From NCBI GenBank assembly GCA_964194555.1, contig CAXMMT010000007.1, positions 1,117 to 65,116 of the forward strand: a DNA stretch of 64,000 nucleotides. The letters run 5' to 3'. The translations under genes were made by a program, and so were the position numbers. Positions 12,213-62,921 of the stretch are shown here, in pieces; the first letter of the stretch is position 1, and the number at the start of each line of letters is the position of its first letter. Source of the stretch: an uncultured Boseongicola sp. GTDB lineage: Bacteria > Actinomycetota > Acidimicrobiia > Spongiisociales > ZC4RG35. The notes beneath the pieces are model-generated. The model ran no database searches, was not told the origin of the DNA, and saw only the letters and a program-made list of their open reading frames with translations.

Positions 12213-13264
12213 CCCTGAACGCCAGAATCATTGTCAAGAGGGGCGACGAGTTCACCCTTGAAATGTCGATTCGTGTCGAGTCCGGGAAGACCGCTGCGCT
12301 GCTCGGTCCTAATGGCGCGGGCAAGTCGACCGCCGTAGCGGCTCTGGCCGGTTTGCTCCCGATCGATCAGGGTCGAATTGTGCTCGGAGACGAGGTTCTC
12401 GATGACCCCGATGCAGGAGTGTTTGTCCCCCCGGATGAGAGGGGGATCGGCGTCGTTTTCCAGGATTATTTGTTGTTCGGGCATTTGACCGTCGCTGAGA
12501 ACGTCGCCTTCGGGCTCAGGAGCAAGAAGAAGGAGCGTGATGCGGTCGAGGCCAAGACGTCAGCCTGGATGGAACGGCTCGGTCTCTCTCAGCTCTCCAA
12601 CAGCAAGGCGAGAGATCTCTCCGGTGGTCAGGCACAGAAGGTGGCGGTCGCCAGGGCATTGATCACCGACCCGGGACTGCTCCTTCTGGACGAGCCCATG
12701 GCCGCCCTCGATGCGACAACGCGGGTCGAGGTCAGACGCGACCTGGCCGATCATCTATCCGAGTTCGCCGGTCCCCGACTCCTGATCACACACGACCCGA
12801 CTGAGGCGTTCCTCCTTGCCGACGAAATCCACGTCATCGAGGACGGACGTATCACCCAGGTGGGAAGCGCCGAGGACGTACGCCTGCGACCTAGGACCCG
12901 TTACGTGGCTGACCTGGCTGGTTCCAACCTGTTGACCGGCACCGCATCGTCCGGCGCTGTCACCGTCGGCACGCACGTCCTTCAGGTGGGGGACACCGCT
13001 ATTGCAGGGTCGGTGCTCGCCACGATTCACCCTCGGGCAATCTCGGTTCATCGCCAACACCCGGAAGGAAGCCCCCGCAACGTCTGGAAGACCACGGTCG
13101 TTCGGATCGAGCACTTTGGTGACAGGGTCCGGCTGCAGACAGGCGACCCTTTGCCGCTGGCTGTCGAAGTTACGCCGGCGGCCGTCGATGCTCTCGGGCT
13201 GAAGGGCGAGAGCGAAATCTGGCTCTCGGTGAAGGCGACGGAGATCGGTGTCGAGCCCGGCTGA
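12194..13264 (+). CDS. modC: Molybdate ABC transporter ATP-binding protein with C-terminal TOBE-like domain
   Basis: Walker A GPNGAGKST, signature LSGGQAQKVAVARAL, Walker B LLLLDEP and a ~120-aa C-terminal extension. Confidence 0.88.
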   Translation: MAEAPVTLNARIIVKRGDEFTLEMSIRVESGKTAALLGPNGAGKSTAVAALAGLLPIDQGRIVLGDEVLDDPDAGVFVPPDERGIGVVFQDYLLFGHLTVAENVAFGLRSKKKERDAVEAKTSAWMERLGLSQLSNSKARDLSGGQAQKVAVARALITDPGLLLLDEPMAALDATTRVEVRRDLADHLSEFAGPRLLITHDPTEAFLLADEIHVIEDGRITQVGSAEDVRLRPRTRYVADLAGSNLLTGTASSGAVTVGTHVLQVGDTAIAGSVLATIHPRAISVHRQHPEGSPRNVWKTTVVRIEHFGDRVRLQTGDPLPLAVEVTPAAVDALGLKGESEIWLSVKATEIGVEPG

Positions 13265-13278
13265 TCCGCGGTGAAGAC

Positions 13279-13328
13279 GAACCTGAGGTAGTTAGGCCCG
13301 GATACGGGGGCCTAACTACCTCAGGTTC
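13279..13328. terminator. Perfect 21-bp stem / 8-nt loop hairpin between convergent modC and the 13342 gene
   Basis: GAACCTGAGGTAGTTAGGCCC (13279-13299), loop GGATACGG, then GGGCCTAACTACCTCAGGTTC (13308-13328). There is no U-tract, which is common in high-GC actinobacterial terminators. Confidence 0.6.
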
Positions 13329-13341
13329 ACAAAGGAGGGCC

Positions 13342-13851
13342 TCAGCCCTCGCTCATCTCGGCGAGGTCGGCTTCGAGCGTCTCCCTCTCTTCGGTGTCTT
13401 CGATTTCTGGGAGAGCGGCCTTTGCCAGATCCAAATGCTCGGTGAAGGTCTCCACATCGTCGACGTCGGCCGCGGCTCGTGCAATCGCCTCATGGGCGAA
13501 ACCGGTCACGAATGGCCCGAGGTCGTGCTCCTTTGCGAGTTCGAGCGATCGGGCGCCAAACCGTCGGGAAAGGTCGGCGTAGCCGAGCACGGCGGCCACC
13601 CTCGACACTTGCCAGTCGGCGACTGCCCAGTTCCTCGGCTCACCGACTTTGTACCAGTGATGACGCTGCGCGAATGTGGACGCAAGCATCTCCTCTTCCT
13701 GCTCGCGGGTCAGCTCGGTCTCGTCGAGCAGGGTCCACGTGTGGTTGAACGCCCTTGGTGCGAATGTGCGATGCCACCGGGCTACCTCTTCGGCGTTCGG
13801 GTTGTCGACGGGATTGGTCACTTGCCTGCCTCCGTTGGTGTCGGAAACCAT
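13342..13851 (-). CDS. Hypothetical protein (acidic, soluble)
   Basis: 169-aa ORF with coding-like composition. An alternative GTG at 13821 would form a GTGA overlap with the upstream aminotransferase stop. No family recognised. Confidence 0.55.
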   Translation of the reverse strand: MVSDTNGGRQVTNPVDNPNAEEVARWHRTFAPRAFNHTWTLLDETELTREQEEEMLASTFAQRHHWYKVGEPRNWAVADWQVSRVAAVLGYADLSRRFGARSLELAKEHDLGPFVTGFAHEAIARAAADVDDVETFTEHLDLAKAALPEIEDTEERETLEADLAEMSEG

Positions 13852-15500
13852 CTGAGATCTTCTGCTTCGGTGGAGAGAGTCTGTTCGATCCCGTCATCGA
13901 GTGGCGCCTCGCTCAGGATCCTCTTTGCTTCTTCGATGTAGTCGTCCAGGGCGTCCAACGACACGGTCTTCGGTGCGGGCTGGGAGCCGGTGAAGTCGGC
14001 GTCCCACAAGCTCGCCGGGGGTTTGGGCAGTCCGTCGCGGTGTCTCCAAACACCCGTTTCCGTTTCGTATGTGTAGAGGGGGAGAAGCCGCCAGCCATCG
14101 GAGGCAATCATGTGGACTGCGTCAACGATGTATTCGAACTCGGCATCCGAGATGAAATAGTTGAAGTTCAGTCGTACCCATCCCGGTTTGAGAACCTCGC
14201 AGCCAGTGGCGATGACATCCTCGAAGCGACTGCTGGTTTCGAGGTCGATCCCGAGGAGACGGTGGCCGTAAGGCCCGGCACATGAGCACCCGCCGCGCGC
14301 CTGGATACCGAAAAGGTCATTGAGCAGGGCGACGACATAGTTGTGATGGAGTACTTTGTCCTCGGTCCTGATCACAAAGCTGACGATGGACAGCCGCTCG
14401 GCTTCGTGGTTGCCCAGAATATCGATACTGGGGTTGGTACCCCACGATCTGATGGCGCGCCGGATGAAGTCGTGTTCGAGCTCGCGGATGCGATCGGGGC
14501 CTACCTCGCTCTTCAGCTTGAAGACGAGTCCGGCTCGGATCGAGCCGATGATCGCAGGAGTGCCGGCCTCCTCCCGATGCTCCTGGTCGGCGATATAGGT
14601 GTGGTGGTCCGGGGACACGTATTGGACGATTCCTCCCCCCGGCACTGCGGGAACCTTGTTGGTGAGCAGGTCGCGGCGAGCAACCAGCAGACCCGGAGAC
14701 CCGGGTCCGCCGATGAGCTTGTGCGGCGAGATGAAGATGGCGTCCTTGTAATCCCCGTCATCCAACTCGGCGGATCCCATGTAGATCCGGACATAGGGTG
14801 CCGAAGCGGCGAAGTCCCAGAAGCTGAGGGCGTCGTGTGCATGAAGAATCCGTGAGATGGCGGCGGTGTCGGAGATGATCCCTGTCACATTGGAAGCGGC
14901 TGAGAACGAGCCGATCTTCAGCGGCCTTTGGGCGTATTCGACAAGACGTTCTTCGAGTTCGCCCAAATCGATCTGACCGTCGGAGTCCTCGTTGATCTCG
15001 ACGACGTCGGCAATCGACTCCCGCCAGGGAAGCTCGTTGGAGTGGTGCTCGTAAGGCCCGACAAACACGACCGGTCGACGGTTGTCGGGGATGGCGTCAC
15101 CAAGGTGGTATTCCTTGTCGAGCGAGTCGGGAATTCGCAGTCCGAGGATCCCAATCAGCCGATCAACGGCCCCGGTGGCTCCGTTCCCGGCAAAGATCAC
15201 GGCATGCTCGTCGTTGTTGGCGCCGATGCACTGTTTGATGATGTCGCGGGCGTCCTCGCGGAACCGTGTGGTTTGGAGCCCGGTCCCAGAAGTTTCGGTG
15301 TGGGTGTTGGCATACATGGGAAGGACCTGATTCCTGATGTAGTCCTCGATGAAGGACAGGGACCGGCCCGACGCCGTGTAGTCGGCATAAGTGACCCGAC
15401 GCAGGCCGAAGGGAGTCTCCACGGCGGTGTCCTTGCCGATTACCGAATCGTGGATTGTCTTGACGAGGTCCACCCTGAGGGGCCGCCTTCCTAAGGTCAC
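13818..15500 (-). CDS. Aminotransferase class V-fold PLP-dependent enzyme (cysteine-desulfurase-like, long form)
   Basis: 560 aa. YADYTASGRSLSFIEDYIRNQVLPMYANTHTETSGTG..., followed by a class V fold-like body. Confidence 0.8.
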   Translation of the reverse strand: MTLGRRPLRVDLVKTIHDSVIGKDTAVETPFGLRRVTYADYTASGRSLSFIEDYIRNQVLPMYANTHTETSGTGLQTTRFREDARDIIKQCIGANNDEHAVIFAGNGATGAVDRLIGILGLRIPDSLDKEYHLGDAIPDNRRPVVFVGPYEHHSNELPWRESIADVVEINEDSDGQIDLGELEERLVEYAQRPLKIGSFSAASNVTGIISDTAAISRILHAHDALSFWDFAASAPYVRIYMGSAELDDGDYKDAIFISPHKLIGGPGSPGLLVARRDLLTNKVPAVPGGGIVQYVSPDHHTYIADQEHREEAGTPAIIGSIRAGLVFKLKSEVGPDRIRELEHDFIRRAIRSWGTNPSIDILGNHEAERLSIVSFVIRTEDKVLHHNYVVALLNDLFGIQARGGCSCAGPYGHRLLGIDLETSSRFEDVIATGCEVLKPGWVRLNFNYFISDAEFEYIVDAVHMIASDGWRLLPLYTYETETGVWRHRDGLPKPPASLWDADFTGSQPAPKTVSLDALDDYIEEAKRILSEAPLDDGIEQTLSTEAEDLRWFPTPTEAGK

Positions 15501-43159: not shown

Positions 43160-43501
43160 ATGAACGAAGCGAATGCACCCGAAGTAGCCGTCCGCGACGA
43201 TGGCGAGCACGATCGTTATGTGGTTGAGGTCGATGGCGTGGCTGCTGGGTTCACCGTGTATCACATGCGTGGCGGGCGACACTTCTTCGTTCATACCGAG
43301 GTTGATGCCAAGTTCACAGGTCAGGGTGTCGGCTCGGCTCTCGCCCGTTATGCGCTTGACGACGTCAAGGCAAAAGGCGGGAGGATCGTCCCTATCTGCC
43401 CGTTCATCAGGGCCTTTGTCGATGAGAACCCCGAATATGAGGCATTGATCGACCACGAGTTGTGGGACCGGATCGATGCGCGGCTGCGACCCGACGGATG
43501 A
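43160..43501 (+). CDS. GNAT-like N-acetyltransferase (YjdJ / Acetyltransf_CG type)
   Basis: ATG at 43160. ...[65 protein letters not shown]. Confidence 0.72.
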
Positions 43502-43649
43502 TCACCTATTGGTGTGTGGTGAAAGTGGCACTAACGGCGTGAAGCCGATGACTCCATCGCGCGAGTAGATGCGGCCTTGACTGCTATGACGATCAGTGTG
43601 GGTTTGTTCATGGGGAATCGTCGCCTTCTCAGCGCTCGGCGCATTCCGC

Positions 43650-44357
43650 TCAGGTTGGACCTGGCGGGTTCACACTCGGTGCCTCCCGATGTCGACGGAG
43701 GAAGTCGTCCACAGTGCGCTGTGCCTCCGTCTTGATCTCCCGATACCAGAACCCTTCATCCCATGGGTCATCTATGGACGCGTCGAAGAGGTCGTCTTCG
43801 TAACTGGTGTGCCGGTGTCGGATCACCGCCCGCGCCGCCAGCGACGCTCGTTCGTCCAAAGAGAGCATCCGGGTGCGTCCAACCCGTCCACTCCCCACCT
43901 CCGCAGCCCGTGTCGCTGCCTCCCGGGCAATCTCGTCAGCGAGGTCGACGTGTTCCGGAGCGAAAGCGAGGAACCAGCGGATAGCGTCTTCGAGCTCGTC
44001 GCGGTATGCGTCCTCCTGCTTCATTCGACTCCGGGCGCTGTGTTCCCTGTGCTTCGAGCGCTGGGTCTCGGTGGCGGCTGCCTCGGCCTCGGCAGCCTCA
44101 ATCGCCTCTTTGGGTGCCCACAATCCGAGCCGGCGACGATGCGCCCGGTTCCGGCCCCGTGGACGCCACGCCACCCAAAACCTCCCCGCCGCTTTCACTC
44201 GCCGCGTCACAAACGCATCACCCGACGGCAGAAAGTCCCAGTCGTCGGGGATCTCGATCTCGCCATGATCCGGGTTCCACGGGCCTTTGCGCGTCACGTA
44301 CACGTCGAACTGCAGATTGGTCAGATCGGTCTCTTCCATGCCCCAACTCTCGCTCAT
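43650..44357 (-). CDS. DUF2293-like protein
   Basis: C-terminal block RTRMLSLDERASLAARAVIRHRHTSYEDDL...YREIKTEAQRTVDDFL. The start is uncertain: ATG 44357 or GTG 44402. Confidence 0.55.
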   Translation of the reverse strand: MSESWGMEETDLTNLQFDVYVTRKGPWNPDHGEIEIPDDWDFLPSGDAFVTRRVKAAGRFWVAWRPRGRNRAHRRRLGLWAPKEAIEAAEAEAAATETQRSKHREHSARSRMKQEDAYRDELEDAIRWFLAFAPEHVDLADEIAREAATRAAEVGSGRVGRTRMLSLDERASLAARAVIRHRHTSYEDDLFDASIDDPWDEGFWYREIKTEAQRTVDDFLRRHREAPSVNPPGPT

Positions 44358-44401
44358 AATGACGTGCCGCGTGGGTCCCCCGCTACGGGTACGAACAGTC
44401 A

Positions 44402-44414
44402 CGCATAATGCCGG
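44402..44414. repeat. Island repeat core, copy a (CGCATAATGCCGG on + strand)
   Basis: It lies in the gap between the DUF2293 and SnoaL-like genes. The flank CTAGATGTGCGGCC resembles the flanks of copies c/d read on the other strand. Confidence 0.6.
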
Positions 44415-44427
44415 CTAGATGTGCGGC

Positions 44428-44817
44428 CTAGTTGAAGTTCCAGATGTAGCGGGCGATCTTCCATGAGCTGTCGGCCTGTCGCTGCAGAATCCACAGGCCC
44501 TGTAGGACCGACTCGGTGGATTCTCCAGAATCAGTTGACTTTTCCGCCGTGGTGAGCGTGAAACGGTCAAACGCCAATGCTCCGTTGACCACGACTTCCT
44601 CGGACGTGGTGAAGTGGATGGGCCGGTTCGCCTCTGCGAAAACCTTCCCCCACTCTCGGAACGCATCTTTGCCGACTACCGCCGGTTCATCTTCCGGCAT
44701 CCAGACAGCGTCGTCGGTGAAGTAGTTCAGGAAGCCTTCAAAGTCGCCATTCTTGAATGCCTCCGTCGCTTCAACTCGGATCGCGTGGATCGCTTCTACG
44801 TCAGACTCCGCTATCAG
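44428..44817 (-). CDS. SnoaL-like / DUF4440 (NTF2 fold) protein, probable non-ATG (CTG) start
   Basis: The tracked ORF (90 aa from ATG 44700) lacks the conserved N-terminal half. The same frame upstream reads IAESDVEAIHAIRVEATEAFKNGDFEGFLNYFTDDAVW with no ATG/GTG/TTG back to a TGA. CTG at 44817 sits 7 nt after GGAGGAGGA. Confidence 0.65.
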   Translation of the reverse strand: MIAESDVEAIHAIRVEATEAFKNGDFEGFLNYFTDDAVWMPEDEPAVVGKDAFREWGKVFAEANRPIHFTTSEEVVVNGALAFDRFTLTTAEKSTDSGESTESVLQGLWILQRQADSSWKIARYIWNFN

Positions 44818-45045
44818 GATTCCTCCTCCATGAAGACCGACTCACCTCTTCGCATTCAACCCACGTGGAGCCGCACGGTTGTTAGCGGTTCCGGTCAACC
44901 TAACCGAACGATACTCAACGCACCGCTAGCAACATGCGAACCAAGGAACAACCGCAACGCCTTCGATCCCAGACGCATACATAAGTGCCTGATTGATGAT
45001 GGGGGTGTTCAAGACTTCACAGATGTGTGACTGGTCAGTTCAGAG

Positions 45046-45360
45046 CTATCTGAGGCACTCGCTGTCGCTGCGCTGTCCCCAGTCGATGAGAGTGATCTTG
45101 CCGTTCTCAACGGTTGCTTCGTGGCCCACGCCTCCTGAGCACCCAGCCCCACGGGCTGCGGCGATCCCGTCCGCGCCGTAGAAGAACTTGGTATTGAACG
45201 TGGCTGTGCTGCCCGACACCACCATGTCGAGGTATTCGATCCCATCACCTGACCCTTGGATGGCGGGAATCTGCTTTTCTAGGGCTCGAATCTCGTCGAC
45301 TCCGGTAGCAACGCCGACTACTACCGTCAAAACGTCCCCACCGAACCGGTGAAGACTCAA
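45046..45360 (-). CDS. Hypothetical ORF, in frame with the truncated sigma fragment upstream; possibly a decayed SnoaL-like C-terminal extension
   Basis: It is separated from ORF 45373..45684 only by an in-frame TAG plus 4 codons. The tail ...GHEATVENGKITLIDW resembles the last strands of an NTF2/SnoaL fold. Confidence 0.3.
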   Translation of the reverse strand: MSLHRFGGDVLTVVVGVATGVDEIRALEKQIPAIQGSGDGIEYLDMVVSGSTATFNTKFFYGADGIAAARGAGCSGGVGHEATVENGKITLIDWGQRSDSECLR

Positions 45361-45372
45361 ACCCCCGAGTCT

Positions 45373-45684
45373 CTATGAAACCCGGGGCGCTTCAAAACCT
45401 TCCAAGGCCGGCACCAAACCAGGCTCCACCCAAATCTCACCAGACGAGCCAGGCACAAGGTCAGGCCTCACTGGTGACTGTTTCATACGACGAGCCCGAT
45501 CCCGCCCAACCCGATACAAATACCCAGCCGGATTGTCCATATCCCCCACCCGGTCCCAATGCTCCCACCCATAGGCAAACGCCTCAGCCGCCGCCTCACG
45601 GCCCACCTCGTCACCAAACCCTGCAGTCAACGCACGACGCAAACGAGGCTCCACATCAACAACAAACGCCTCGAAAGAGACCAC
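45373..45684 (-). pseudogene. Truncated ECF sigma factor (region 2 only)
   Basis: FEAFVVDVEPRLRRALTAGFGD...AAAEAFAYGWEHWDRVGDMDNPAGYLYRVGRDRARR...WVEPGLVPALEG, then TAG. No region 4 HTH follows in any frame I read. Confidence 0.5.
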
Positions 45685-45761
45685 AGCCGTCGTATCCCTA
45701 ATCAGCAGAACTCCTCAACACCATCAACCTATAAGAGCAACCAACCCCCAAGTCGTACGGC

Positions 45762-45791
45762 ACCCGCAAATCGCAGGCATTATGTGCGGGT
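45762..45791. repeat. Island repeat core, copy b
   Basis: ACCCGCA-aatcgcaGGCATTATG-TGCGGGT. The core is embedded in a 7-bp inverted repeat, about 80 nt upstream of the sigma fragment. Confidence 0.55.
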
Positions 45792-45828
45792 AGTCCCAGC
45801 GAAGATGCTGGTAAAATGTGGCGAGGGG

Positions 45829-46035
45829 TTAGCCGAGGTCTTCGATGGCGACGATGTCTCTGGCTCTGACTGCGTGGACCTTTTCGCCGCCTGCTTGTGT
45901 GCCGTCGCGTCTGGCGGACATCATCATGTACTTGTTGTCATCTTCCGTAGGTCCTGATTGTTCGACGAGCCATTCGTAGTCTCGGTCGGATGTGACAAGG
46001 ACGTGGCCTCCTGTGAGCATGACTCTGCATGCCAT
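45829..46035 (-). CDS. Small hypothetical protein (68 aa)
   Basis: ATG at 46035 is preceded by GAGAGGAA 6 nt upstream. The sequence begins MACRVMLTGGHVLVTSDRDYEWLVEQSG. No family recognised. Confidence 0.45.
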   Translation of the reverse strand: MACRVMLTGGHVLVTSDRDYEWLVEQSGPTEDDNKYMMMSARRDGTQAGGEKVHAVRARDIVAIEDLG

Positions 46036-46170
46036 TGATGTTCCTCTCGTTGGGTGTAGAGAGGCTACGCGCAGCCCCATAAATGATGCTTGGTAACTCC
46101 GTTTAGTGGCCGAACACCACATCAGGACCGAAGAGAGCGATCCGCAGAGCCATGACTTGCCAATTTAACT

Positions 46171-46235
46171 CCCGACCCGCCCATAGCAACCGGCATTATG
46201 AATCGATCCGTGATCACGCATAAGTGCTGCCGTTA
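46171..46235. repeat. Island repeat, copy c (extended ~60-nt form)
   Basis: CCCGACCCGCCCATAGCAACCGGCATTATGAATCGATCCGTGATCACGCATAAGTGCTGC aligns along its length with copy d. Confidence 0.65.
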
Positions 46236-46355
46236 TATGCGGCTTCGATGGACTCGCGTCCATCGTTCACGAGGCCAGCGTCGCGTAGTTGCCCCAGGGC
46301 CTATTGGTGCTCGGCTCTCGTTGGGTCGCCCGGACTGCCCGTCACGGTGCGATGT

Positions 46356-46619
46356 TCAGTCGGGTTCGATTCCGAGTTCGGCAAGGATTCGAGACCGCTC
46401 GCGGGTGTAGCGGTCTTCGCTTATCGCACCGGCCTCGCGTTCGGCGTTGAGCCGGGCGAACTCCTCGAAAAGGGCAGTCTCGTTGGTAGCCGATAGGCGG
46501 GCGGTGTCGTCTGTTCGGGCTTCCCGTTTGGTCTGTTTGGCCTGTTTCTTTACTGCACGAGCTTGTTCCCTCGCTCGCTTCGCGACCGCTTCGCCTCGGC
46601 TTTTAGCCATGCCGGCCAA
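46356..46619 (-). CDS. Small basic/acidic hypothetical protein (87 aa), SHOCT-like C-terminus
   Basis: Lys/Arg-rich N-terminus, then FEEFARLNAEREAGAISEDRYTRERSRILAELG. Confidence 0.45.
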   Translation of the reverse strand: MAGMAKSRGEAVAKRAREQARAVKKQAKQTKREARTDDTARLSATNETALFEEFARLNAEREAGAISEDRYTRERSRILAELGIEPD

Positions 46620-46706
46620 TAGAGTGGACGCTTGGGAACGCCAAGATCGGAGAAGACAGCATCATCTCTGGCCTAGCGGCCGGCTAGCGCGGTGTAGTCG
46701 AATGGG

Positions 46707-46958
46707 TCAGGAACGCTCTTTGGCGATGTTGACATTGAGGCTGCGGCCTTCAAAGTCAGATCCGTTGAGCGCACTGATCGCATTCTGGGCGCTGTCGGCC
46801 GATCCCATTTCGACGAAACCGAAACCGCGGGAGCGGCCGGTGTCGCGATCGGAAATCACCTGAGCTTTGGTGACGGGACCGTGCTCGGCGAACAAGCGCT
46901 CAAGATCGGACGAATCGGTAGAAAACGCGAGATTCCCCACGTAGATATTTGTGGACAT
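46707..46958 (-). CDS. RRM (RNP-1/RNP-2) RNA-binding protein
   Basis: MSTNIYVGNLAFSTDSSDLERLFAEHGPVTKAQVISDRDTGRSRGFGFVEMGS.... RNP-2 is IYVGNL and RNP-1 is RGFGFVEM. ATG at 46958 has an AAAGGAG RBS. The tracked extension to 47225 is rejected. Confidence 0.9.
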   Translation of the reverse strand: MSTNIYVGNLAFSTDSSDLERLFAEHGPVTKAQVISDRDTGRSRGFGFVEMGSADSAQNAISALNGSDFEGRSLNVNIAKERS

Positions 46959-47245
46959 TGCATGCTCCTTTGAGCTGAACCGTCTACTTGTTGGCACCTG
47001 ACAGGCCGAGCAACTCAGATCCCGGTCAGATCGACCGAGAAACGGGAGCACCCTGCTGCGACACCGACGGAACGACAGAAGCAGAGAAAGGCGAAGCACG
47101 TGAACCGTGCAATAAGCACACCCTAACCAATCACCCCCACTAACCACGCCAGCTCGCTGTGGAACAACGATCCACCTTCGAACCACGAGGCGAAGGGGTC
47201 CTTCAAAGGATTCGACCAGCCGCACAAAGTGTAGAAAGTCCTACA

Positions 47246-47302
47246 GGCCCCGCCTATAGCCGGCAATATGTATCCCTCGGTGGACACGCATAAGTGCGGC
47301 GG
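47246..47302. repeat. Island repeat, copy d (extended ~60-nt form)
   Basis: GGCCCCGCCTATAGCCGGCAATATGTATCCCTCGGTGGACACGCATAAGTGCGGCGG, about 290 nt upstream of the RRM gene. Confidence 0.65.
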
Positions 47303-47523
47303 TTTCAAGGGGTCATTGCAACGCTTTCGCATTTGTCACGTTTGGCAACGCCGAAGCCTCCTTGTCTGCTCCTACCTCCATCGGAGAGTCAGAGGGTCTA
47401 AGAGTGTTCCTTGATGCTCCGGGACAGTGGGGACTCGTCTGCTTCGACCTTTCGGGAGGTGAGCACGACGGAGCCGGACTCGACTACGTGACAATGTTCA
47501 CCGTCAACGAATAGCCAATAGGT

Positions 47524-47660
47524 AGCGCATAACCGGCATTATGCGTTCCTCGTAGTGCCTGGTCACGGGCTGCTTCTCACTCGGCTGACAGGGTATCTGA
47601 CACTGAAATGAGAGGGTACGAAAAGTAAAAGGTGGCCCTGACGACGTGATCCCGATCACA
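47524..47660. repeat. Island repeat copy e (core, in the palindrome CGCATAA-ccggca-TTATGCG) plus ~100-nt element R1
   Basis: The core lies at 47532-47542. R1 (47557-47660) reads CCTGGTCACGGGCTGCTTCTCACTCGGCTGACAGGGTATCTGACACTGAAATGAGAGGGTACGAAAAGTAAAAGGTGGCCCTGACGACGTGATCCCGATCAC. Confidence 0.7.
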
Positions 47661-47824
47661 GCGGTGTCGATCTCCGGAGCCGGTCGCGTGGCGCCTGGTC
47701 TAGCGCATGTTTCTTTCGTTGGTTGATCTTGAAGCCTTGCCGGGCTTCTGGGAGGAATACGCTGTGGTTGTGGATGCTGGGTGGATGACCACGATGGCAT
47801 CGTGCGCTCGCCCGGTCGACGAGG

Positions 47825-49237
47825 ATGGAGCTTGTGATGGTTGGCCGTCGGATTGTTATGACGTTGGCGTTTTATCCACGAGGTGGATCGGCGCAGGTGG
47901 TGCGCTATTTGGGCGGAACGCTTGAGAAGTTGGGGCACGCGGTGACGGTGTGTTGTGGGTCGCTGGGGCCGTCGGGATCTTCCTCTCATGCGGCGACGTT
48001 CTTCGCGGGCCTTGACGTGCAGGCGCTTGACTTCTCCGAAGCAGCGACATGGTTCGAACAGGGACAGGATCCGATGGCTGCGCCGGTGCCCTTCCCCCCG
48101 TCGTTTGAGGATCGACCCGACGTGCCCGACCGGGTGTTCGTCTCGTTGGACGACGACGCTTACCACCGTCAGGTAGCAATGTGGCAGTCGCTGCTCGAAC
48201 GGGTCGGGCTACCGGATCTGTATCACATACACCATCTGACCCAGGTCAACGATGCGGTGGCGGCTGTCGGGGATCGACCCACTGTTGTTCACCTGCATGG
48301 CACCGAGCTGAAAATGCTGGCCAAGATTCATCTCGGCGGTGGGGAGCCATGGAAGCATGCGACCGAGTGGGTTCAGCGTCTGGTGAGGGTTGGCCGTCGG
48401 GCCGATCGTCTCGTGGTCATTTCACCAACAGATCGTCAGCTGGCAATCGACCTGTTGGGAGTGGCCCCTTCGCTCATCGAAGTCGTACCGAACGGGGTTG
48501 ACCTCACCAGGTTCGCACCCCTCCGCTTGCCAGGGAGTGAACGGTTGGTCCGCTGGCGTCAGTGGCTGGTGGACAAGCCACAAGGCTGGGATGAGAGCGG
48601 CCAGCCGGGAACGATCCGCTACTCGGACAACGACATCGACCGTTTCTTTTTGGACCCGGCGTCAGGAGAGCTGCTCCCAGTGCTGCTGTTCGTCGGCCGC
48701 TTCTTGGACTTCAAACGGGTCCCGCTTCTCGTCCGTGCCTACGCCGCGGCCCGTGAGGCGCTGGGACAGTTCGCACCGCCGTTGGTGATCTGGGGTGGTT
48801 ATCCCGGCGAGTGGGAAGGCGAACATCCCCACACGGTGGCGACCACGTTGGGGGGCGACGGGGTCTTCTTCGTCGGCTGGCGGGGCCATGAGGATCTCAC
48901 CGCGGGGTTGAACTGTGCTGACGTGTTCGTGGCACCCTCGGTCGATGAGCCCTTCGGCCAGGTCTATCTGGAGGCCATGGCCTGCGGCCTCCCAGTAATC
49001 GCCACCGATTCGGGCGGTCCCCAATCGTTCGTCAACACCGATCAGGCTCGGCCCAACGGCTGGCGGGTCACACCCGACAACGAGACAGAACTCACAGACG
49101 CCATAATCGAGGCGACCTCCGACAAGGCCACCCGACGTCAACGAGGGCGCAACGCCCGACGGCTGATCGAACGCCAATACGACTGGCGTCGCATCGCCGA
49201 GCACATCGACCGAATCTACAACGATCTACTCGCCTAG
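47825..49237 (+). CDS. GT4-family (GT-B fold) glycosyltransferase
   Basis: 470 aa. N-terminus IVMTLAFYPRGGSAQVVRYLGGTLEKLGHAVTV. The EX7E block is EPFGQVYLEAMACGLPVIATDSGG. The exact start is uncertain between 47825 and 47861. Confidence 0.85.
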   Translation: MELVMVGRRIVMTLAFYPRGGSAQVVRYLGGTLEKLGHAVTVCCGSLGPSGSSSHAATFFAGLDVQALDFSEAATWFEQGQDPMAAPVPFPPSFEDRPDVPDRVFVSLDDDAYHRQVAMWQSLLERVGLPDLYHIHHLTQVNDAVAAVGDRPTVVHLHGTELKMLAKIHLGGGEPWKHATEWVQRLVRVGRRADRLVVISPTDRQLAIDLLGVAPSLIEVVPNGVDLTRFAPLRLPGSERLVRWRQWLVDKPQGWDESGQPGTIRYSDNDIDRFFLDPASGELLPVLLFVGRFLDFKRVPLLVRAYAAAREALGQFAPPLVIWGGYPGEWEGEHPHTVATTLGGDGVFFVGWRGHEDLTAGLNCADVFVAPSVDEPFGQVYLEAMACGLPVIATDSGGPQSFVNTDQARPNGWRVTPDNETELTDAIIEATSDKATRRQRGRNARRLIERQYDWRRIAEHIDRIYNDLLA

Positions 49238-49263
49238 CGAGCAAAGGTCCCCGTCGCTGTTTA

Positions 49264-49297
49264 TTCCGGTTCTAGAACGCCGGTTCTAGAACCGGAA
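49264..49297. terminator. 15-bp perfect hairpin after the glycosyltransferase gene
   Basis: TTCCGGTTCTAGAAC-gccg-GTTCTAGAACCGGAA, starting 27 nt after the stop. It contains two GGTTCTAGAACC palindromes, so an operator role cannot be excluded. Confidence 0.55.
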
Positions 49298-49317
49298 CAC
49301 GCTCGCTTGAAGAGGCT

Positions 49318-49404
49318 ACTGACACTCGGCTGACAGGGTGGTTGACATCGGAGTTGAAGGGTCGGAAAGTGATGGCTCGCTCTGACGACGTGGGCTCCGA
49401 TCAG
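49318..49404. repeat. ~100-nt island element, copy R2
   Basis: ...CTCGGCTGACAGGGTGGTTGACATCGGAGTTGAAGGGTCGGAAAGTGATGGCTCGCTCTGACGACGTGGGCTCCGATCAG. It contains the complementary pair ATCGGAG / CTCCGAT. Confidence 0.7.
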
Positions 49405-49424
49405 TCGATCGCGCGTCCATCACA

Positions 49425-49526
49425 CCTGGTTACGTGCTGCTTGTCATCCGGTGACAGGGTGGTTGACACTGAGATCGGAGGGATGCGAAAAGTGACGAGC
49501 GGCACTAGCGACGGGAACCCGATCAC
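49425..49526. repeat. ~100-nt island element, copy R3
   Basis: CCTGGTTACGTGCTGCTTGTCATCCGGTGACAGGGTGGTTGACACTGAGATCGGAGGGATGCGAAAAGTGACGAGCGGCACTAGCGACGGGAACCCGATCAC. Confidence 0.7.
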
Positions 49527-49598
49527 GGGCGCCGGTTTCGTGAGCCGTGGGGTCACGTCCATGGACGCTATGTGTTGCAATAACCACCTGACCTCGCA

Positions 49599-49609
49599 GG
49601 CATTATGCG
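49599..49609. repeat. Island repeat core, copy f (GGCATTATGCG)
   Basis: The context TCGCAGGCATTATGCGTGG is nearly identical to copy b (TCGCAGGCATTATGTGCGG). Confidence 0.55.
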
Positions 49610-49956
49610 TGGTTTGTGGCTCTTCCTTCCCGGGTTGTCGCCGAGATCAAACTCGGATCAAACGCGACCCCATGGAGCGTATAGAGCCTTTCGAGTCTGA
49701 AACGGATATCGGGCCGGCTTGGTAAATCCTGGGAAGTGTCGAGATCCCCGACGTGCTTTGTGGAGATACGATAATGAAATCGAAACCCCACCGAATAAAC
49801 GTTGGGCAGTCCATGTGAGACTGGCATGCGGGAGACATCGAAGCGTGGCCCCGAACCGGTGTGATTTCGGGGAAACGGTTGCGACACTTTCGACGAGGAT
49901 TGTCGTCTCGTTATCGAGGTGCCATGTGGAACGGTTTCGCTAAGTCGAGCGAGATC

Positions 49957-57898: not shown

Positions 57899-60800
57899 TC
57901 AGCTGCAGCCGGTGGTGTCCCCACATGTGAGGCAGACGTAGCAACTCCCGTTGCGGATGGTCATATGACCACAGTTGGAGCACACCGGGGAATCACCCAT
58001 GTTTCCCGAGAGCACCATGTCGGATGTGGCCGCGTTGTCGCCGGCGGCCATCGCGGCAGCTACTGCGGTGACAACCTTCTCCACCATCGGCTCCGGCACG
58101 GTTCCGTTGGGTGAGTCGACAAACTCGGCCGCCCGTCGCAGCACTTCGACATCACCTTCGGTCACAGCGTCGCTCAGATCGAGCTGCAGTCCCGCTTCGA
58201 CCGCCAGGCCCTTCGGCGGTGCGGCGAGGCCACCCTCGCGATCCGGTGGAACCTGGGCGAGTTCATCCCGTTCCAGGTATTCGACGCCAAGCGCCCGGAA
58301 CACATAGTCGATGATCGAGTTGGCCATCTTGATGTTCTCATGACCCTCGACCATTCCTCGGGGCTCGAATGTCTGGAACGTGAACGAGTCTACGAACTCC
58401 TCCAACGGCACTCCGTACTGGAGACCCTTGGACACGGCAATGGCAAAACAACTGAGGATGCCTTTGAGAGTCGCCCCTTCCTTGGCCAGGTCGATGAAGA
58501 TCTCACCCAAGGTTCCGTCTTCGTACTCACCGGTGCGCAGATAGACCTTGTGGCCACCAACGCGGGCCTCCTGGAGATACCCGGCACGTCGGGCGGGAAG
58601 CAGAAACCGGGGTGGCTGCATTCCCTGGGCGTATGCCTGGCTTGGCGAGGTTCCCGCCGGGAGGTTGCCCCAGTGGATCGCCTTCTCCTGCTCGACAGCA
58701 GCGGTGATTTCGGCGGCTTCCTCCTCGCTCTCCTCGCCTTCGTCGGCCGTGGAGTTGAGGGGTTGTACTGCCTTCGACCCATCCCGGTAGAGAGCCATGG
58801 CCTTGAGACCCCACTCCCACGAGAGGTGGTATGCCTCCTCGATGGTCTCGGTGTCTACCTCATTGGGCATATTAATGGTCTTCGAGATTGCTCCCGAAAT
58901 GAAAGGCTGAGCTGCCGCCATCATCTTGATATGGCCGTTGTGGTGAATGAACCGCCTGCCGTATTTCCCGTTCTTGTTGGCAGTGTCGAAGACACTGAGG
59001 TGTTCGTCTTTGATATGAGGTGCGTTTTCTATGGTCTGTCGACCGCAGATGTGGTCGTTGGCCTCTGTGATCTGCCCTTTGCTGAACCCGAGTGCCTTGA
59101 GCAGATCGAAGTTCCACGAGGTGTACTCGTCCACTCCGAAGCCGAGTCGCTGCAATGTTGCCTCGCCAAATGTGAAGACGTTGAACGCGTGCTTCAGGTC
59201 GAAAACCCCGGGGAGCATTGCCTCGAGCTTTGCCAGGTCGTTGCTGTCGAAGCCCTTCTCGGCCAAAGCCAGATCGTTGATGTGTGGAGCGCCCTCGATC
59301 GAACTGGTCCCGACGATGTACTGCACTACGTCATTGATCTCATTGAGGCTGTAGCCGAGGCTGGTCAGGGCCGGTGCTACCGACTGGTTGACGATCTTGA
59401 AGTAACCCCCGCCGGCGAGCTTCTTGAACTTGACGAGGGCAAAGTCAGGCTCGACACCCGTAGTATCACAATCCATTAGAAGCCCGATTGTGTTGTGGGA
59501 GACAAAACCATTGGCGACATAGGTCACGTTGTTCGGGACCGACAAGTCATAGGTCAGCTGCTCCTCACCTAACTCGGCCGATGCGACACGGTCATAGAAG
59601 AAGCCGAGGAGGTGACCCAGCTCGGGGTCACCGGTCCGCTCATAGAGCTTCTGTGCCGAGCGTCGTGATACGAGACCGTTCCGACTGAGGGCCAACAGCA
59701 ATGTCTTGCGCAGGCTGTCGTTATCGGGCGCAAGCCGATCGATCATGTCCCTACTCACAGGGATGTGATCGCAGCGAGCGGCTTGTTGGACATCGATTTC
59801 TCGAACTGCTGACTGCTTTCGATCACTCATGAACCCGATCTGGGCTCCCCAAAGCTCGCCGTAGGAGAGGTTGAGTACACGAAGAACAGCCAATGGCGAG
59901 TTCCCCCAACCGGTTGTGTCGTACTTTCTTGTGGTGGGGATACCCAGGGCAAGCATCAGCGATTGCACGTCGTGCGAGAAGTCGATGCTGGTTGTCGACC
60001 ATGACTGGTAGCCAGCAGGATGGACCGTTCCATCTGCCTCGAATAGCCCTCTCAAAAAAGGCGAATAGACCGCCGGGCTGTTCGTGTGCAGGATTGTGTC
60101 AGGGATGTGTGGATGCCAGCCTTTCCCGGTGTGGCCTTCCACGGGAGCATGTTTGGCGAGTCCTGCTGCTTGCCACCACAGAGCGAGCGCCACCGAGTGG
60201 AAGGCAACTTCGTGGTAGCCGGTTTTCTTCGTCACGTGAGCTTCGAGGCTGAATAACTCCTTTCCGAGCGTGGAGAGCCTCTCCACGACATCGAAGTCTC
60301 CGGCAGTCACAGCGAGACGGATTCCCTTCGCGTGCAATGAGCCGTCACCCATGAAATAGCCGACGAACTCAGCTAACTCAGGCGTGACCGTCTCCGGCAC
60401 CCTCGTCGTGAAGTCACCGGTCCAATGCATCTCGCCAAGCAGGGGGAGCCTTACCTCCTGTGGCTCCCCGACGAGTTGGTCAAACTGAAGAGGGACGAGG
60501 TCCTCAGCTTTGATCTCGCTGAATCGTTTCCAAACCCATTCGCCATCCTCTTTGGCGACCTTGATCCGGTGGGTCGGCGTTCCCTGGATGCGAAAGCCGC
60601 GGTGCGTGCCCACTGTGACCACGGGTTCCACCCCGTTGACATAGAATTGCTCAGCTCTTCTCGGGCCCTCGTCGGTCGAGACCCGAACTCCGAGATCCTG
60701 CCATTGTGCACCATTCGGGTCGCCAAGCGACTTGAGACGCACCAGTCCTCTCTCGGTCGGAATAAGTGATCCCCCGACCAGACACCCGGTTGGCGCCAAA

Positions 60801-62572
60801 ACACTTGACTGTGCGTTGCGATAGCCGGTTTTCTCGCCACGTTCGAGAGCGAGATCCCATGATTCGCGAGCCGCGGTAAGTAGATCGTCGGGACAGACGT
60901 CTGGATCGATACCCATCACCTTGGTGGTGATGGCGTCGAAGTCGTCGCCGTCATAAGCAGCCACCCGATGGTTGCGGATCACCCGGAGCATTGAGTCCCG
61001 GTTCTCCTCGAACTTGGGGAACGGCCCGACCACTCCTGCAATCTCGGCAGAGGTGGCGTAGGAGAACCCGGTGAGGATGGAGGTCATCGCCCCGGCGATG
61101 GCACGACCCTCATCGGAGTCGTATGCGATGCCCTGACGCATCAGCAATGATCCGAGGTTGGCGTAGCCAAGGCCGAGCGTTCGATAGTCGTATGAGCCCT
61201 GGGCGATCTCCTCCGAGGGGAAGTGGGCCATTGCCACCGAGATCTCCAGCACGATGGTCCAGATCCGGATGGCGTGCTTGTAGGAGTCGATGTCGAAGAT
61301 ACCGGTCTCGTCGTCATAGAACCTGACCAGATTGACCGACGCCAGGTTGCAAGCGGTGTCGTCCAGAAAAAGATATTCCGAGCAGGGATTACTTGCCCGA
61401 ATGCGACCGCCGGCCGGACTGGTGTGCCACTCGTTGATCGTGGTGTCGAACTGGAGACCGGGGTCGGCGCATGCCCACGCAGCCTCGGCGATCCGTGACC
61501 ACAAGTCGCGCGCTTTGATCGTCTTGCGGACTGACCCGTCGGTGCGGTTGATCAGATCCCAGTCATTGTCACGCTCGACTGCTCTGACGAAGTCGTTGGT
61601 GATGCGGACAGAGTTGTTTGAGTTCTGACCGGAGACGGTGGCATATGCCTCTCCGTTGAAGTCTGCCGGGAAGCCACCATGGTTGATGAGGAGCTTGGCC
61701 TTCTCTTCCTCGACTTTCTTCCAGTCGACGAAGGTCTCGATGTCGGGATGGTCGCCATCGAGGATGACCATTTTGGCGGCGCGACGGGTTGTTCCCCCCG
61801 ACTTTATCGCGCCTGCCGCCCGATCTCCGATCTTGAGGAAAGACATGACGCCCGAGCTTTTGCCTCCACCGGAGAGCTGCTCGTTCTCCCCGCGGATCGA
61901 GGAGAAGTTGGAACCAGCACCTGACCCGAACTTGAAGATACGAGCCTCACGAACCCACAAATCCATGATCCCACCCGGGTTCACCAGGTCGTCGCTGACC
62001 GACAAGATGTAGCAGGCGTGAGGTGTTGGTCTGCTGTACGAGTCAGGGGAGGAAACGAGTTCCTCAGTCTCTCCATCGACGTACCAGAGTCCTTGGGGTG
62101 GTCCAGTCAGCCCGTAGGCCTGATGGAGACCGGTGTTGAACCATTGTGGCGAATTGGGCGCGGCCATCTGGGTGGCGAGCATGTAGCGAAGCTCGTCCTC
62201 GAAGGCCTCGGCGTCATCGGTCGACGCGAAGTAGCCCTCCTTCTCACCCCAGTGCTTCCAGGTGCCTGCCAGCCGATCGAAGACTTGCTTGGCGGAACGC
62301 TCGGGACCAGTGACGGGATTGCCGTTGTCATCGACAAGGGCCGTGCCTTCATCGTCGTACTGGGGGACCCCGGCCTTGCGGAAGTACTTGGACACCATGA
62401 TGTCAGAGGCGACCTGGCTCCATTGGGCGGGGATCTCGGCGTCGGTCATCTCAAAGACGACTGAACCGTCGGGATTGGCGATTCTGGAGTCACGAGTCGA
62501 CCACTCCAGTTGGTCGTATGGGTCGTTACCAGCCTCGGTGAAGCGACGGGTTATCCGTAGGCCTTCGCTCAT
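57899..62572 (-). CDS. nrdJ: Class II (adenosylcobalamin-dependent) ribonucleotide reductase, intein-containing precursor
   Basis: ATG at 62572 with a GGAGGAGG RBS. N-terminus MSEGLRITRRFTEAGNDPYDQLEWSTRDSRI.... Active-site region SNPCSEYLFLDDTACNLASVNL. C-terminal Zn-ribbon CSNCGHMTIRNGSCYVCLTCG. The tracked extension to 62833 is rejected. Confidence 0.95.
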   Translation of the reverse strand: MSEGLRITRRFTEAGNDPYDQLEWSTRDSRIANPDGSVVFEMTDAEIPAQWSQVASDIMVSKYFRKAGVPQYDDEGTALVDDNGNPVTGPERSAKQVFDRLAGTWKHWGEKEGYFASTDDAEAFEDELRYMLATQMAAPNSPQWFNTGLHQAYGLTGPPQGLWYVDGETEELVSSPDSYSRPTPHACYILSVSDDLVNPGGIMDLWVREARIFKFGSGAGSNFSSIRGENEQLSGGGKSSGVMSFLKIGDRAAGAIKSGGTTRRAAKMVILDGDHPDIETFVDWKKVEEEKAKLLINHGGFPADFNGEAYATVSGQNSNNSVRITNDFVRAVERDNDWDLINRTDGSVRKTIKARDLWSRIAEAAWACADPGLQFDTTINEWHTSPAGGRIRASNPCSEYLFLDDTACNLASVNLVRFYDDETGIFDIDSYKHAIRIWTIVLEISVAMAHFPSEEIAQGSYDYRTLGLGYANLGSLLMRQGIAYDSDEGRAIAGAMTSILTGFSYATSAEIAGVVGPFPKFEENRDSMLRVIRNHRVAAYDGDDFDAITTKVMGIDPDVCPDDLLTAARESWDLALERGEKTGYRNAQSSVLAPTGCLVGGSLIPTERGLVRLKSLGDPNGAQWQDLGVRVSTDEGPRRAEQFYVNGVEPVVTVGTHRGFRIQGTPTHRIKVAKEDGEWVWKRFSEIKAEDLVPLQFDQLVGEPQEVRLPLLGEMHWTGDFTTRVPETVTPELAEFVGYFMGDGSLHAKGIRLAVTAGDFDVVERLSTLGKELFSLEAHVTKKTGYHEVAFHSVALALWWQAAGLAKHAPVEGHTGKGWHPHIPDTILHTNSPAVYSPFLRGLFEADGTVHPAGYQSWSTTSIDFSHDVQSLMLALGIPTTRKYDTTGWGNSPLAVLRVLNLSYGELWGAQIGFMSDRKQSAVREIDVQQAARCDHIPVSRDMIDRLAPDNDSLRKTLLLALSRNGLVSRRSAQKLYERTGDPELGHLLGFFYDRVASAELGEEQLTYDLSVPNNVTYVANGFVSHNTIGLLMDCDTTGVEPDFALVKFKKLAGGGYFKIVNQSVAPALTSLGYSLNEINDVVQYIVGTSSIEGAPHINDLALAEKGFDSNDLAKLEAMLPGVFDLKHAFNVFTFGEATLQRLGFGVDEYTSWNFDLLKALGFSKGQITEANDHICGRQTIENAPHIKDEHLSVFDTANKNGKYGRRFIHHNGHIKMMAAAQPFISGAISKTINMPNEVDTETIEEAYHLSWEWGLKAMALYRDGSKAVQPLNSTADEGEESEEEAAEITAAVEQEKAIHWGNLPAGTSPSQAYAQGMQPPRFLLPARRAGYLQEARVGGHKVYLRTGEYEDGTLGEIFIDLAKEGATLKGILSCFAIAVSKGLQYGVPLEEFVDSFTFQTFEPRGMVEGHENIKMANSIIDYVFRALGVEYLERDELAQVPPDREGGLAAPPKGLAVEAGLQLDLSDAVTEGDVEVLRRAAEFVDSPNGTVPEPMVEKVVTAVAAAMAAGDNAATSDMVLSGNMGDSPVCSNCGHMTIRNGSCYVCLTCGDTTGCS
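59492..60784 (-). mobile_element. Intein (431 aa) with LAGLIDADG homing-endonuclease domain inside nrdJ
   Basis: The N-extein ends ...SSVLAPTG and the intein starts CLVGGSLIPT. LAGLIDADG blocks are FVGYFMGDGS and FLRGLFEADGT. The intein ends ...NGFVSHN and the C-extein resumes TIGLLMDCDTTGVEPDF. Codon positions were counted from the tracked translation and checked on the sequence. Confidence 0.9.
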
Positions 62573-62642
62573 TGATTGTGCCTCCTCCGCACTTCTCTCG
62601 TTCCGGCCGCAGGACCGAAAACATGTCCATTCATAGCTCCCA

Positions 62643-62689
62643 CCACTAGATGCTGTGGTGTGCGGGGAAGTGTCCACTACACCTGGTAT
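62643..62689. promoter_or_regulatory. Possible tandem NrdR boxes upstream of nrdJ
   Basis: CCACTAGATGCTGTGG (62643-62658) and CCACTACACCTGGTAT (62674-62689) lie 31 bp apart centre to centre, 70-120 nt upstream of the nrdJ ATG. The first resembles the acaCwAtATaTwGtgt consensus. The second is weaker. Confidence 0.35.
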
Positions 62690-62921
62690 GGACTCCAACA
62701 CTGTAATTACACGCGTGCAACTCGTCAAGAACCAAGTTATCCACAGCTCGCGCAGCGTGCTCGGAGGACCAAAACGGCCATCCGGGCGGGGAAGTGAACG
62801 CCAAAACGGACGCTCAGGGGAAGTGACCGGCACCCTATATGGGTGTCGCCGGCTCAGCTAGTCCTATGTCTGATCAGTTTTCGCGGTCGGTGGTTTTAGC
62901 GTGTACACACGCTTCCGACGA

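Follow-up and report, generated by a model that had tools for sequence, protein, structure and literature searches.

Examination of a 64,000-nucleotide stretch (the window) of contig CAXMMT010000007.1, from an uncultured Boseongicola sp. of the Acidimicrobiia, revealed that six copies (a to f) of the motif GGCA(T/A)TATG all lie in a strain-specific island of 6,461 bp (43495..49955), located between the stop codons of two genes, one for an acetyltransferase and one for an ABC-2 permease. We propose, with a probability of about 60%, that this island is an eroded and horizontally acquired array of gene cassettes bearing attC-like sites, similar to the clusters of attC sites lacking an integron integrase (CALIN) known from IntegronFinder (PMC4889954, PMC9024848). 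If so, what the motif marks in the window is a decayed, horizontally acquired island and not a regulon.

An initial annotation of the window had reported the six copies, and all of them are present where it placed them, apart from a shift of one base for copy e, whose 11-mer lies at 47533-47543 on the minus strand instead of 47532-47542. The repeated motif is GGCATTATG, and its 9-mer GGCAWTATG is the complement of CATAATGCC. This 9-mer exceeds chance in the 64-kb window, with 7 occurrences against 0.27 expected (about 26-fold), a number reached by none of 100 shuffled sequences. Six of the seven fall within 5.2 kb; the seventh, at 52128, lies within an ABC ATPase gene and is probably a chance match, the element profile described below giving it just 4.7 bits, a noise-level hit that is the only one in the window outside the island. 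The kinship proposed between copies was also recovered: c and d match at 80% identity over 45 nt and are also similar upstream, copy e is a perfect palindrome (CGCATAA-N6-TTATGCG), and b and f have 24 nt in common at 83% identity. The extended homology of this last pair is real, but it stems from an insertion sequence (IS) end of the IS481 type that abuts the element arm and not from a longer motif; both arms abut IS481-family end remnants, which explains their extra common bases (TGCGA...). Three features came in addition to those first described, namely a degenerate half-site at 44973-44989, the strain-specific island itself, and the fact that the 9-mer is merely part of an element of about 60 nt.

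The borders of the island were defined by comparison with relatives. Loci L081 (91% nucleotide identity), L084 and L085 align with the window up to 43494/43511 and resume at 49956/49957, and their empty junction consists of about 20 nt between the acetyltransferase gene, the neighbour of hutU, and the final ABC-2 permease gene. Homologs of the urocanase of the window reach 97% identity, and those that are named belong to Acidimicrobiia or Actinomycetota metagenome-assembled genomes (MAGs). The contigs of two other relatives (L082 and L083) stop at window positions 43218 and 43465, that is, at the left island border, which hints at the presence of repeat-rich or variable DNA at this spot in other strains too. 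The core is missing with the whole island from L081, L084 and L085, and the loci of orthologs of the island glycosyltransferase (80 genomes) are essentially devoid of the motif, with one match in 1.3 Mb. Searches of the window found no tRNA, Rfam family or integrase near the island, and scans of the window, the element and a conserved block described below gave no Rfam match at the gathering threshold or at E<=1; a known RNA family or a tRNA was ruled out on these grounds. A phage or plasmid origin was likewise set aside, with no match in viral contigs or in plasmids, and exact look-ups of the proteins of the window returned no match.

A strict pattern based on copies c and d (GGCAWTATG-N10-18-CACGCATAAGTGC) was used to scan metagenomes and matched at least 120 contigs, many of the matches being located at contig ends. 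The element statistics reported here (profile hits, arrays, breakpoints and recombinase census) come from these listed metagenome contigs, which represent about 400 kb. This frequent position at the ends of contigs suggests that short-read assemblies probably break at the repeats, in which case such islands would be under-represented in MAGs.

Read on the minus strand of the window, the element consensus, common to all copies, is CCGCACATAAC-G-GCAC-TTATGCGTG-(variable loop)-CATAATGCC-G-GTTATGGGCGG. The element is an imperfect palindrome of 51-76 nt, with all differences in length in its central part, and its boxes can be described in integron terms as R''-spacer-L''-variable terminal structure-L'-spacer-R', GCAC-TTATGCG being the partner arm of the motif arm. 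A single long hairpin is predicted for the consensus (z=-4.15 for the top strand and -3.33 for the bottom strand). The boxes and spacers have a 7-5-7 layout, and the predicted fold has one bulged C in the 5' arm and one bulged G in the 3' arm, both of which are conserved. In an alignment of 75 distinct copies, 88% of cells form pairs, a value that falls to 28-47% if the partner is slid. Covariation is seen at the base of the loop (UA 20, CG 17, UG 15), the loop itself being variable in sequence and length. In the outer boxes, A10 and C12 are invariant, A11 and the GTT columns 65-67 are conserved at 90% or more, and the R box pairs in 70-74 of the 75 copies. Compared with the full attC consensus (RYYYAAC/GTTRRRY), the R boxes show 1-2 mismatches (ACATAAC; GTTATGG or GTTATGT).

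These elements are organized in arrays. The element profile yielded 259 hits in the 400 kb of listed array contigs and 0 in 1.39 Mb of related Acidimicrobiia/Thermoleophilia loci. The listed contigs contain 150 full elements and about 60 half-elements; neighbouring elements have the same orientation in 128 cases and the opposite one in 11, the median spacing is 945 nt, and most intervals hold a single gene (58 intervals). Elements are often found directly after the stop codon of the preceding gene. In longer contigs the arrays are dense and end abruptly, as in L210 with at least 9 elements over 14 kb, and in the window copies b, c, d and e are all on the minus strand within 1.8 kb. The site family is abundant and apparently undescribed, and occurs on contigs with Acidimicrobiia-like genes; a full-text literature search on attC, integron and Acidimicrobiia found no paper. 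Proteins of these contigs that have named homologs point to Acidimicrobiia or Actinomycetota, and the named homologs of a cyclase encoded in the arrays come from MAGs of these groups.

Comparison of array contigs with each other indicated where homology is lost. Breakpoints lie 15 nt or less from an element in 48% of cases, against 6.7% for random positions. Pairs of loci with the left flank alone in common had the same loop in three of three cases and remained identical up to GGTTATG, and pairs sharing the right flank alone had different loops in all seven. With one further pair that shows an exchange in the left arm, exchange at the R' end fits 10 of 11 one-flank pairs, a small sample taken from metagenome assemblies. 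It follows from the loop pattern that the body of a site moves together with the unit upstream of it, and its distal R' with the one downstream. A linkage of the loop to the right flank, obtained from breakpoints at BLAST hit ends, was rejected when a pairwise test showed that the commonest loop variant was shared by chance. Complete units with elements at their borders are found again in other contexts (L089/L133/L167 and L137/L189), a tandem duplicate is present in L098, and no case was found among the contigs in which the 60-nt element alone was inserted or missing.

The mechanism that most likely underlies these observations is the following. A single strand of the element would fold, in vivo as in the prediction, into a long hairpin with single-base bulges, and this fold would present the inverted arms CRCATAA and TTATGYG around a spacer of 5-6 nt. 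Two inverted arms around a short spacer are the classic layout of the core sites of tyrosine recombinases. Strand exchange would occur at the R' end, between CATAATGCC-G and GTTATG, and would make each site of an array chimeric, with its body derived from the upstream cassette and its distal R' from the downstream cassette. Cassettes could in this way be excised, duplicated and reinserted by an IntI-like or Xer-like recombinase, presumably acting in trans. The initial annotation had considered a recombination site or the end of a small mobile element, and it was pointing in the right direction: the motif would be the core of a hairpin-type cassette-exchange site, and is also an insertion point of IS110-family elements.

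The likeness to attC was judged from boxes, layout, fold and array geometry. As in attC sites, we found an imperfect palindrome, about 60 nt long, whose outer boxes carry conserved AAC...GTT, with 7-5-7 box-spacer-box arms and a variable central structure; the single-base bulges of the predicted fold may correspond to the extrahelical bases of attC. As in CALIN, neighbouring sites share a strand, are separated by less than 4 kb and delimit units of about one gene. Apparently chimeric sites with R'-end exchange, and targeting by IS110/IS1111-family elements, are further points of resemblance. Unlike in integrons, no IntI, attI or cassette promoter (Pc) module was found in the window, in the listed arrays or at five array starts, and the cassette genes face both ways and have long upstream regions. 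Unlike those of attC sites, the R and L boxes vary unusually little and resemble dif (CATAA / TTATG, not RYYYAAC / GTTRRRY), and half-sites are frequent. As no adjacent integrase was found and their genes run in both directions, the arrays are not members of the integron family as defined.

A number of observations weigh against an attC-like cassette array. Neither an integron integrase nor an intact tyrosine recombinase was detected across the 64 kb of the window, in the array contigs (400 kb) or beside the five array starts (window, L173, L181, L192 and L210), which have unrelated neighbour genes and no IntI/attI/Pc module. This search combined a Pfam census of 98 large open reading frames (ORFs), a six-frame motif scan and long contigs with homologs of cassette proteins; most array contigs are short, and a distant integrase is possible. 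The sole recombinase trace is a 115-amino acid (aa) C-terminal fragment of a tyrosine recombinase in L089 (2938-3285, minus strand; HDLRHTWA ... GHSTISVTLDLYSH), which lies between two half-elements inside the array and scores below every NCBIfam cutoff. Cassette genes face both ways, 55 being co-oriented and 43 anti-oriented with the sites according to a simple gene caller based on third-position GC content (GC3), and the cassettes that open the L210 array are anti-oriented. Many cassettes have long upstream regions, unlike the promoterless cassettes of integrons. Complementarity between R'' and R' within a cassette is at random level, and half-sites occur often, contrary to what is expected of a site that depends purely on its hairpin. 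Because the R and L stems hardly vary, covariation is informative solely at the base of the loop. An exchange in the left arm was seen in L090/L160, and the one-sidedness of exchange rests on just 10 pairs. Finally, the contigs are short-read assemblies in which some joins at repeats may be chimeric.

Other explanations have to be weighed against the same body of evidence. The initial annotation had offered a shared promoter or operator of a co-regulated stress or cold regulon, and CATAAT does read as a -10 hexamer, with copies upstream of minus-strand genes and a GTGACC-N17-CATAAT arrangement at copy e that is conserved in five loci; in addition, the family of the RRM protein encoded in the island is named 'cold-inducible RNA-binding protein' by some sources. 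A regulon nevertheless appears highly improbable, because the orientation of the elements is independent of that of the genes (128:11 for elements and 55:43 for genes). Copy a is inverted relative to its downstream gene, no further copy precedes the many other genes of the window, and the first cassettes of L210 are antisense to the candidate promoter at the array start. Moreover, orthologs of the RRM gene and its partner o87 keep 80% identical upstream DNA without the element, and a sigma-70-like scan gave 1 match (at e) for 1.5 expected, which is not significant by itself. Repetitive extragenic palindromes (REP/REPIN), here an inverted doublet of palindromes of about 25 nt spread by a transposase of the REP-associated tyrosine transposase (RAYT) type or another one, would act as hairpins at mRNA ends or as sites for nucleoid proteins, and the rearrangements would result from homologous recombination between repeats. 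REP and REPIN sequences are likewise palindromic doublets with decayed singlets and hot spots for IS elements and rearrangements; the doublet and singlet organization (150 full, about 60 half), the extragenic location often just past stop codons, the targeting by IS110, IS481 and IS30 elements, the mixed gene orientation and the absence of a detected integrase all fit their anatomy. The elements differ from them in being confined to dense arrays and not dispersed (0 in 57 kb of core window sequence, the noise-level hit in the ABC ATPase gene apart, and 0 in 1.39 Mb of related loci, against about 1 per kb in abruptly ending arrays). Exchange points are one-sided (10 to 1) despite conserved arms of similar length, gene and element move together, and solo insertions were not seen. 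No Y1/RAYT protein was present among the 25 most frequent families either, a weak argument since the scan was limited to ORFs of at least 230 aa and RAYTs are smaller. On balance we regard a REP-like origin as unlikely.

Recombination by the host XerC/XerD at dif-like sites, as for the pdif modules of Acinetobacter or for integrative mobile elements exploiting Xer (IMEX), with no dedicated integrase, amounts to a variant of the cassette-array reading with another enzyme, and we hold it to be rather unlikely. Every arm carries the ATAA-N6-TTAT core of dif, and the arms CGCCCATAA or CGCACATAA resemble the XerC arm CGCCGATAA of predicted actinobacterial dif, the predicted dif of Frankia alni being CACGCCGATAATGCACATTATGTCAAGT (PMC3025954). 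Copy e is a clean 7-6-7 duplex site, complete duplex sites in the form of single half-sites are common, no linked recombinase was found at the five array starts, and gene orientation is mixed as in pdif modules. The likeness extends to the XerC-like arms and small modules with genes either way of pdif modules, and to the attP of CTX phage, where two inverted dif-like sites form a hairpin, a fold also predicted here. What separates the elements from Xer/dif systems is the absence of a XerD-type arm (actinobacterial TTATGTCAAGT), the co-oriented instead of alternating sites, and the lack of a recognizable chromosomal dif: the empty junction of L081, L084 and L085 has no dif-like site, and no GC-skew flip occurs in the window. 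Moreover, the inverted partner arm and the loop are conserved as a unit, and this arm, the bulges and the covarying loop argue for selection on the hairpin itself. The only candidate for a XerD arm, TTATGTCAAG, found in seven loci, belongs to the end of an IS110-family element and was discarded. A chromosomal dif at the replication terminus, suggested by the resemblance of copy e to the XerC arm of Escherichia coli dif, was rejected with no GC-skew switch in the window and no dif at the empty junction.

If the elements are indeed attC-like sites on Acidimicrobiia-like contigs, they would change the picture of a phylum in which complete integrons are reported to be lacking (PMC9024848), and would point to a major route of gene exchange in little-studied bacteria. 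The combination of dif-like boxes with no linked integrase makes them a candidate link between Xer and integron recombination, and the site family might yield a new tool for site-specific recombination. A more specific proposal, which we put forward as a speculation of fairly low probability, is that the arrays are a cassette platform of Actinomycetota without an integrase of its own, whose folded XerC-arm-like sites are recombined in trans by a host Xer-type or other recombinase, whose cassettes carry their own promoters in either orientation, and whose insertion end is marked by a leader composed of a 130-nt block and a simple site. Such a platform would stand beside integrons and pdif modules as a third type of system for gene cassettes.

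IS elements are frequently associated with the sites. attC and REP sites are both targets of IS elements. In L210, an IS110-family element with an RNA-guided transposase (12865-14229; transposase 13008-14039) is inserted exactly at GGC^ATTATG, and an IS110-family end abuts CATAAT in seven loci (L089, L129, L130, L168, L171, L177 and L188). This end (GAATCTCTTATGTCAAGG...) mimics the XerD arm of dif by chance. Members of the IS1111-attC group and the IS110 elements that target REP sequences likewise insert in their sites, as seen here at several loci; the comparison concerns users of the site as a target and leaves the site itself unexplained. IS481- and IS30-family elements also occur in or beside the elements and arrays. 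In at least 15 loci the spacer of an element runs into an IS481-like end, TGCCGGCTCAAGGGGTCATTGCAAC, and in L139 (2353-3633) this end precedes an IS481-family transposase gene.

As an attC-like array, the island of the window would be heavily degraded: copy e and the adjacent block would represent the array start, c and d near-full but poorly folding sites, a a half-site, and b and f arms cut short by insertions of the IS481 family that have left just their ends behind. The array is thus heavily eroded and probably inactive. The profile built from metagenome copies detected c and d most strongly. Copy c (46175..46244, minus strand), located downstream of the RRM-o87 cassette, is a near-full R''-L''-loop-L'-R' element with small insertions (nhmmer 45 bits, E=2.5e-12, model positions 5-68), and its hairpin is weakened (z=-0.87). 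Copy d (47248..47297, minus strand) has lost R'' and keeps L''-loop-L'-R' (48 bits, E=2.7e-13, model positions 19-68); it abuts an IS481-like end on its L'' side and its fold is lost (z=0.07). The adjoining terminal repeat remnant, GGCGGTTTCAAGGGGTCATTGCAAC, occupies 47298..47325 on the plus strand and was recognized by comparison with the loci in which this type of end (TGCCGGCTCAAGGGGTCATTGCAAC) adjoins elements.

Copy e (47522..47553, minus strand) is a simple L'-R' site, reading GCGCATAA-CCGGCA-TTATGCG on the plus strand (21.7 bits, E=4.7e-5). It is joined to a conserved block of about 130 nt (copy 1, 47553..47690, plus strand), identified by self-comparison and in other contigs, and the same junction of an e-type site with a block recurs at the upstream array ends of L173, L181, L192 and L210, with unrelated neighbour genes each time. 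Copy e with block 1 is therefore an array-start type of site. Two further block copies, 49323..49405 (from self-comparison) and 49444..49530 (from self-comparison and other contigs), both on the plus strand, complete a set of three that surrounds the glycosyltransferase gene, and blocks are also found in L023 (11437-11526 and 12521-12611), L173, L181, L192, L129 and L210 (18587-18722). Block copy 1 carries the conserved GTGACC-N17-CATAAT on the minus strand, facing into the array. No Rfam family matched the block and no consensus fold of it was convincing; it may represent a leader of the array or a region akin to attI. An IS110 end or guide RNA was dismissed after a complete IS110 copy without the block was found in L210.

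Copy a (44397..44428, plus strand) is a lone half-site, L'-spacer-degenerate R' (CACGCATAA-TGCCGG-CTAGATGTGCGG), matching model positions 39-68 with 11.8 bits (E=0.06). Its orientation is opposite to that of b-f, and it separates the stop codon of a SnoaL-like gene from the start of a DUF2293 gene, and a homologous junction is present in L100. The degenerate L''-type half-site at 44973..44989 (minus strand; GGCACTTATG-TAT-GCGT) was read from the sequence, its nhmmer score of 5.1 bits being at noise level; the 30 nt beside it (44980-45009) are identical in L204, where they directly follow a full element.

Copies b and f are reduced to single arms. That of b (45776..45790, minus strand), at noise level with the profile, is CCCGCACATAATGCC (also given as CCGCACATAATGCC) and was delimited by comparison with L127, L102, L109 and L168, in which an arm of this kind borders TGTGATTTCAGGGGGTCGTTGCA; in place of the R' side, copy b has a remnant of an IS481-like end, TGCGATTTGCGGG..., at about 45740-45775 on the minus strand. 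Copy f (49599..49612, minus strand), with the arm CCACGCATAATGCC and the rest of the element missing, was assigned from the reading of the sequence, the b/f repeat and the comparison of IS ends. It is joined to the IS481-like end remnant TGCGAGGTCAGGTGGTTATTGCAAC (49571..49598, minus strand), which is part of a 38-nt inverted repeat with 47285-47322 (74% complementary). This repeat exists because the flank of d and copy f both abut IS481-family end remnants, and it brackets a 2.3-kb segment with the glycosyltransferase gene and no transposase. Another IS481-like end remnant, TGTGATTTCGGGG..., lies at the right island edge (49860..49936, plus strand), with 78% identity to L109 and L127, in which the similar end abuts an element.

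Several cassette genes of the island have homologs in array contigs, namely the RRM-o87 pair (L144), o68 and ORF50 (L150), the N-terminus of the DUF2293 protein (L100) and a sigma factor fragment (L154). The RRM gene (46707-46958) and the gene of the 87-aa protein o87 (46356-46619) form a unit (46356..46958, minus strand; Pfam RRM_1, 6.9e-23) with 90% nucleotide identity to L144. RRM with a partner of 84-87 aa is a conserved two-gene module (46349-47130) that includes about 170 nt of conserved upstream DNA, and it occurs without the element in other genomes (L219-L226), where the upstream DNA is 80% identical. Homologs on long contigs of the RRM protein (L206-L208, L219-L226) and of the cyclase (L215, L216) are outside arrays. 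Since RRM-o87 is found elsewhere without hairpin elements, it exists in two settings, in one as an ordinary locus of the chromosome and in the other as a cassette.

At the left island end, the DUF2293 gene (43650..44402, minus strand; Pfam DUF2293, 4.2e-12), of which the likely start is the ATG at 44358, encodes a protein whose N-terminal part is 82% identical to L100. The SnoaL-like protein is encoded at 44428..44817 on the minus strand (Pfam SnoaL_2, 1.3e-11); no ATG, GTG or TTG is present at the start expected from the domain, and the frame opens with ATC CTG ATA after a GGAGGAGGA ribosome-binding site. The region 45046..45684 (minus strand), with a homolog in L154, contains a 104-aa ORF (45046-45360) and a truncated fragment of a sigma factor of the SigE/extracytoplasmic function (ECF) type (45373-45684), which reaches 24.7 bits with the NCBIfam SigE family, below the cutoff, and covers just profile positions 7-75 of 162. 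The 68-aa protein o68 (45829..46035, minus strand) has 66% aa identity to an ORF of L150 and no family match. ORF50, a truncated small ORF of 50 aa between d and e (47362..47514, plus strand), has 82% nucleotide identity to L150, which carries a 73-aa ORF in an array. The glycosyltransferase gene (47825..49237, plus strand; GT4 family, Pfam Glycos_transf_1, 1.6e-28) lies between the conserved blocks and the IS481-like ends. Its orthologs reach 87% nucleotide identity in non-syntenic contexts; that of L023 is also accompanied by blocks, and the same IS481-like end is found beside this glycosyltransferase gene and block.

A perfect 15-nt inverted repeat, TTCCGGTTCTAGAAC-N4-GTTCTAGAACCGGAA (49264-49297), is located 27 nt past the glycosyltransferase stop codon and could be a terminator stem or a protein-binding site. 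Elsewhere in the window, the class II ribonucleotide reductases of L081 and L084 (1122-1126 aa) correspond to a gene at 57899-62833 (minus strand) that encodes 1644 aa and carries an insert of about 1.3 kb missing from these relatives, at about 59492-60785, which is an intein with a LAGLIDADG domain.

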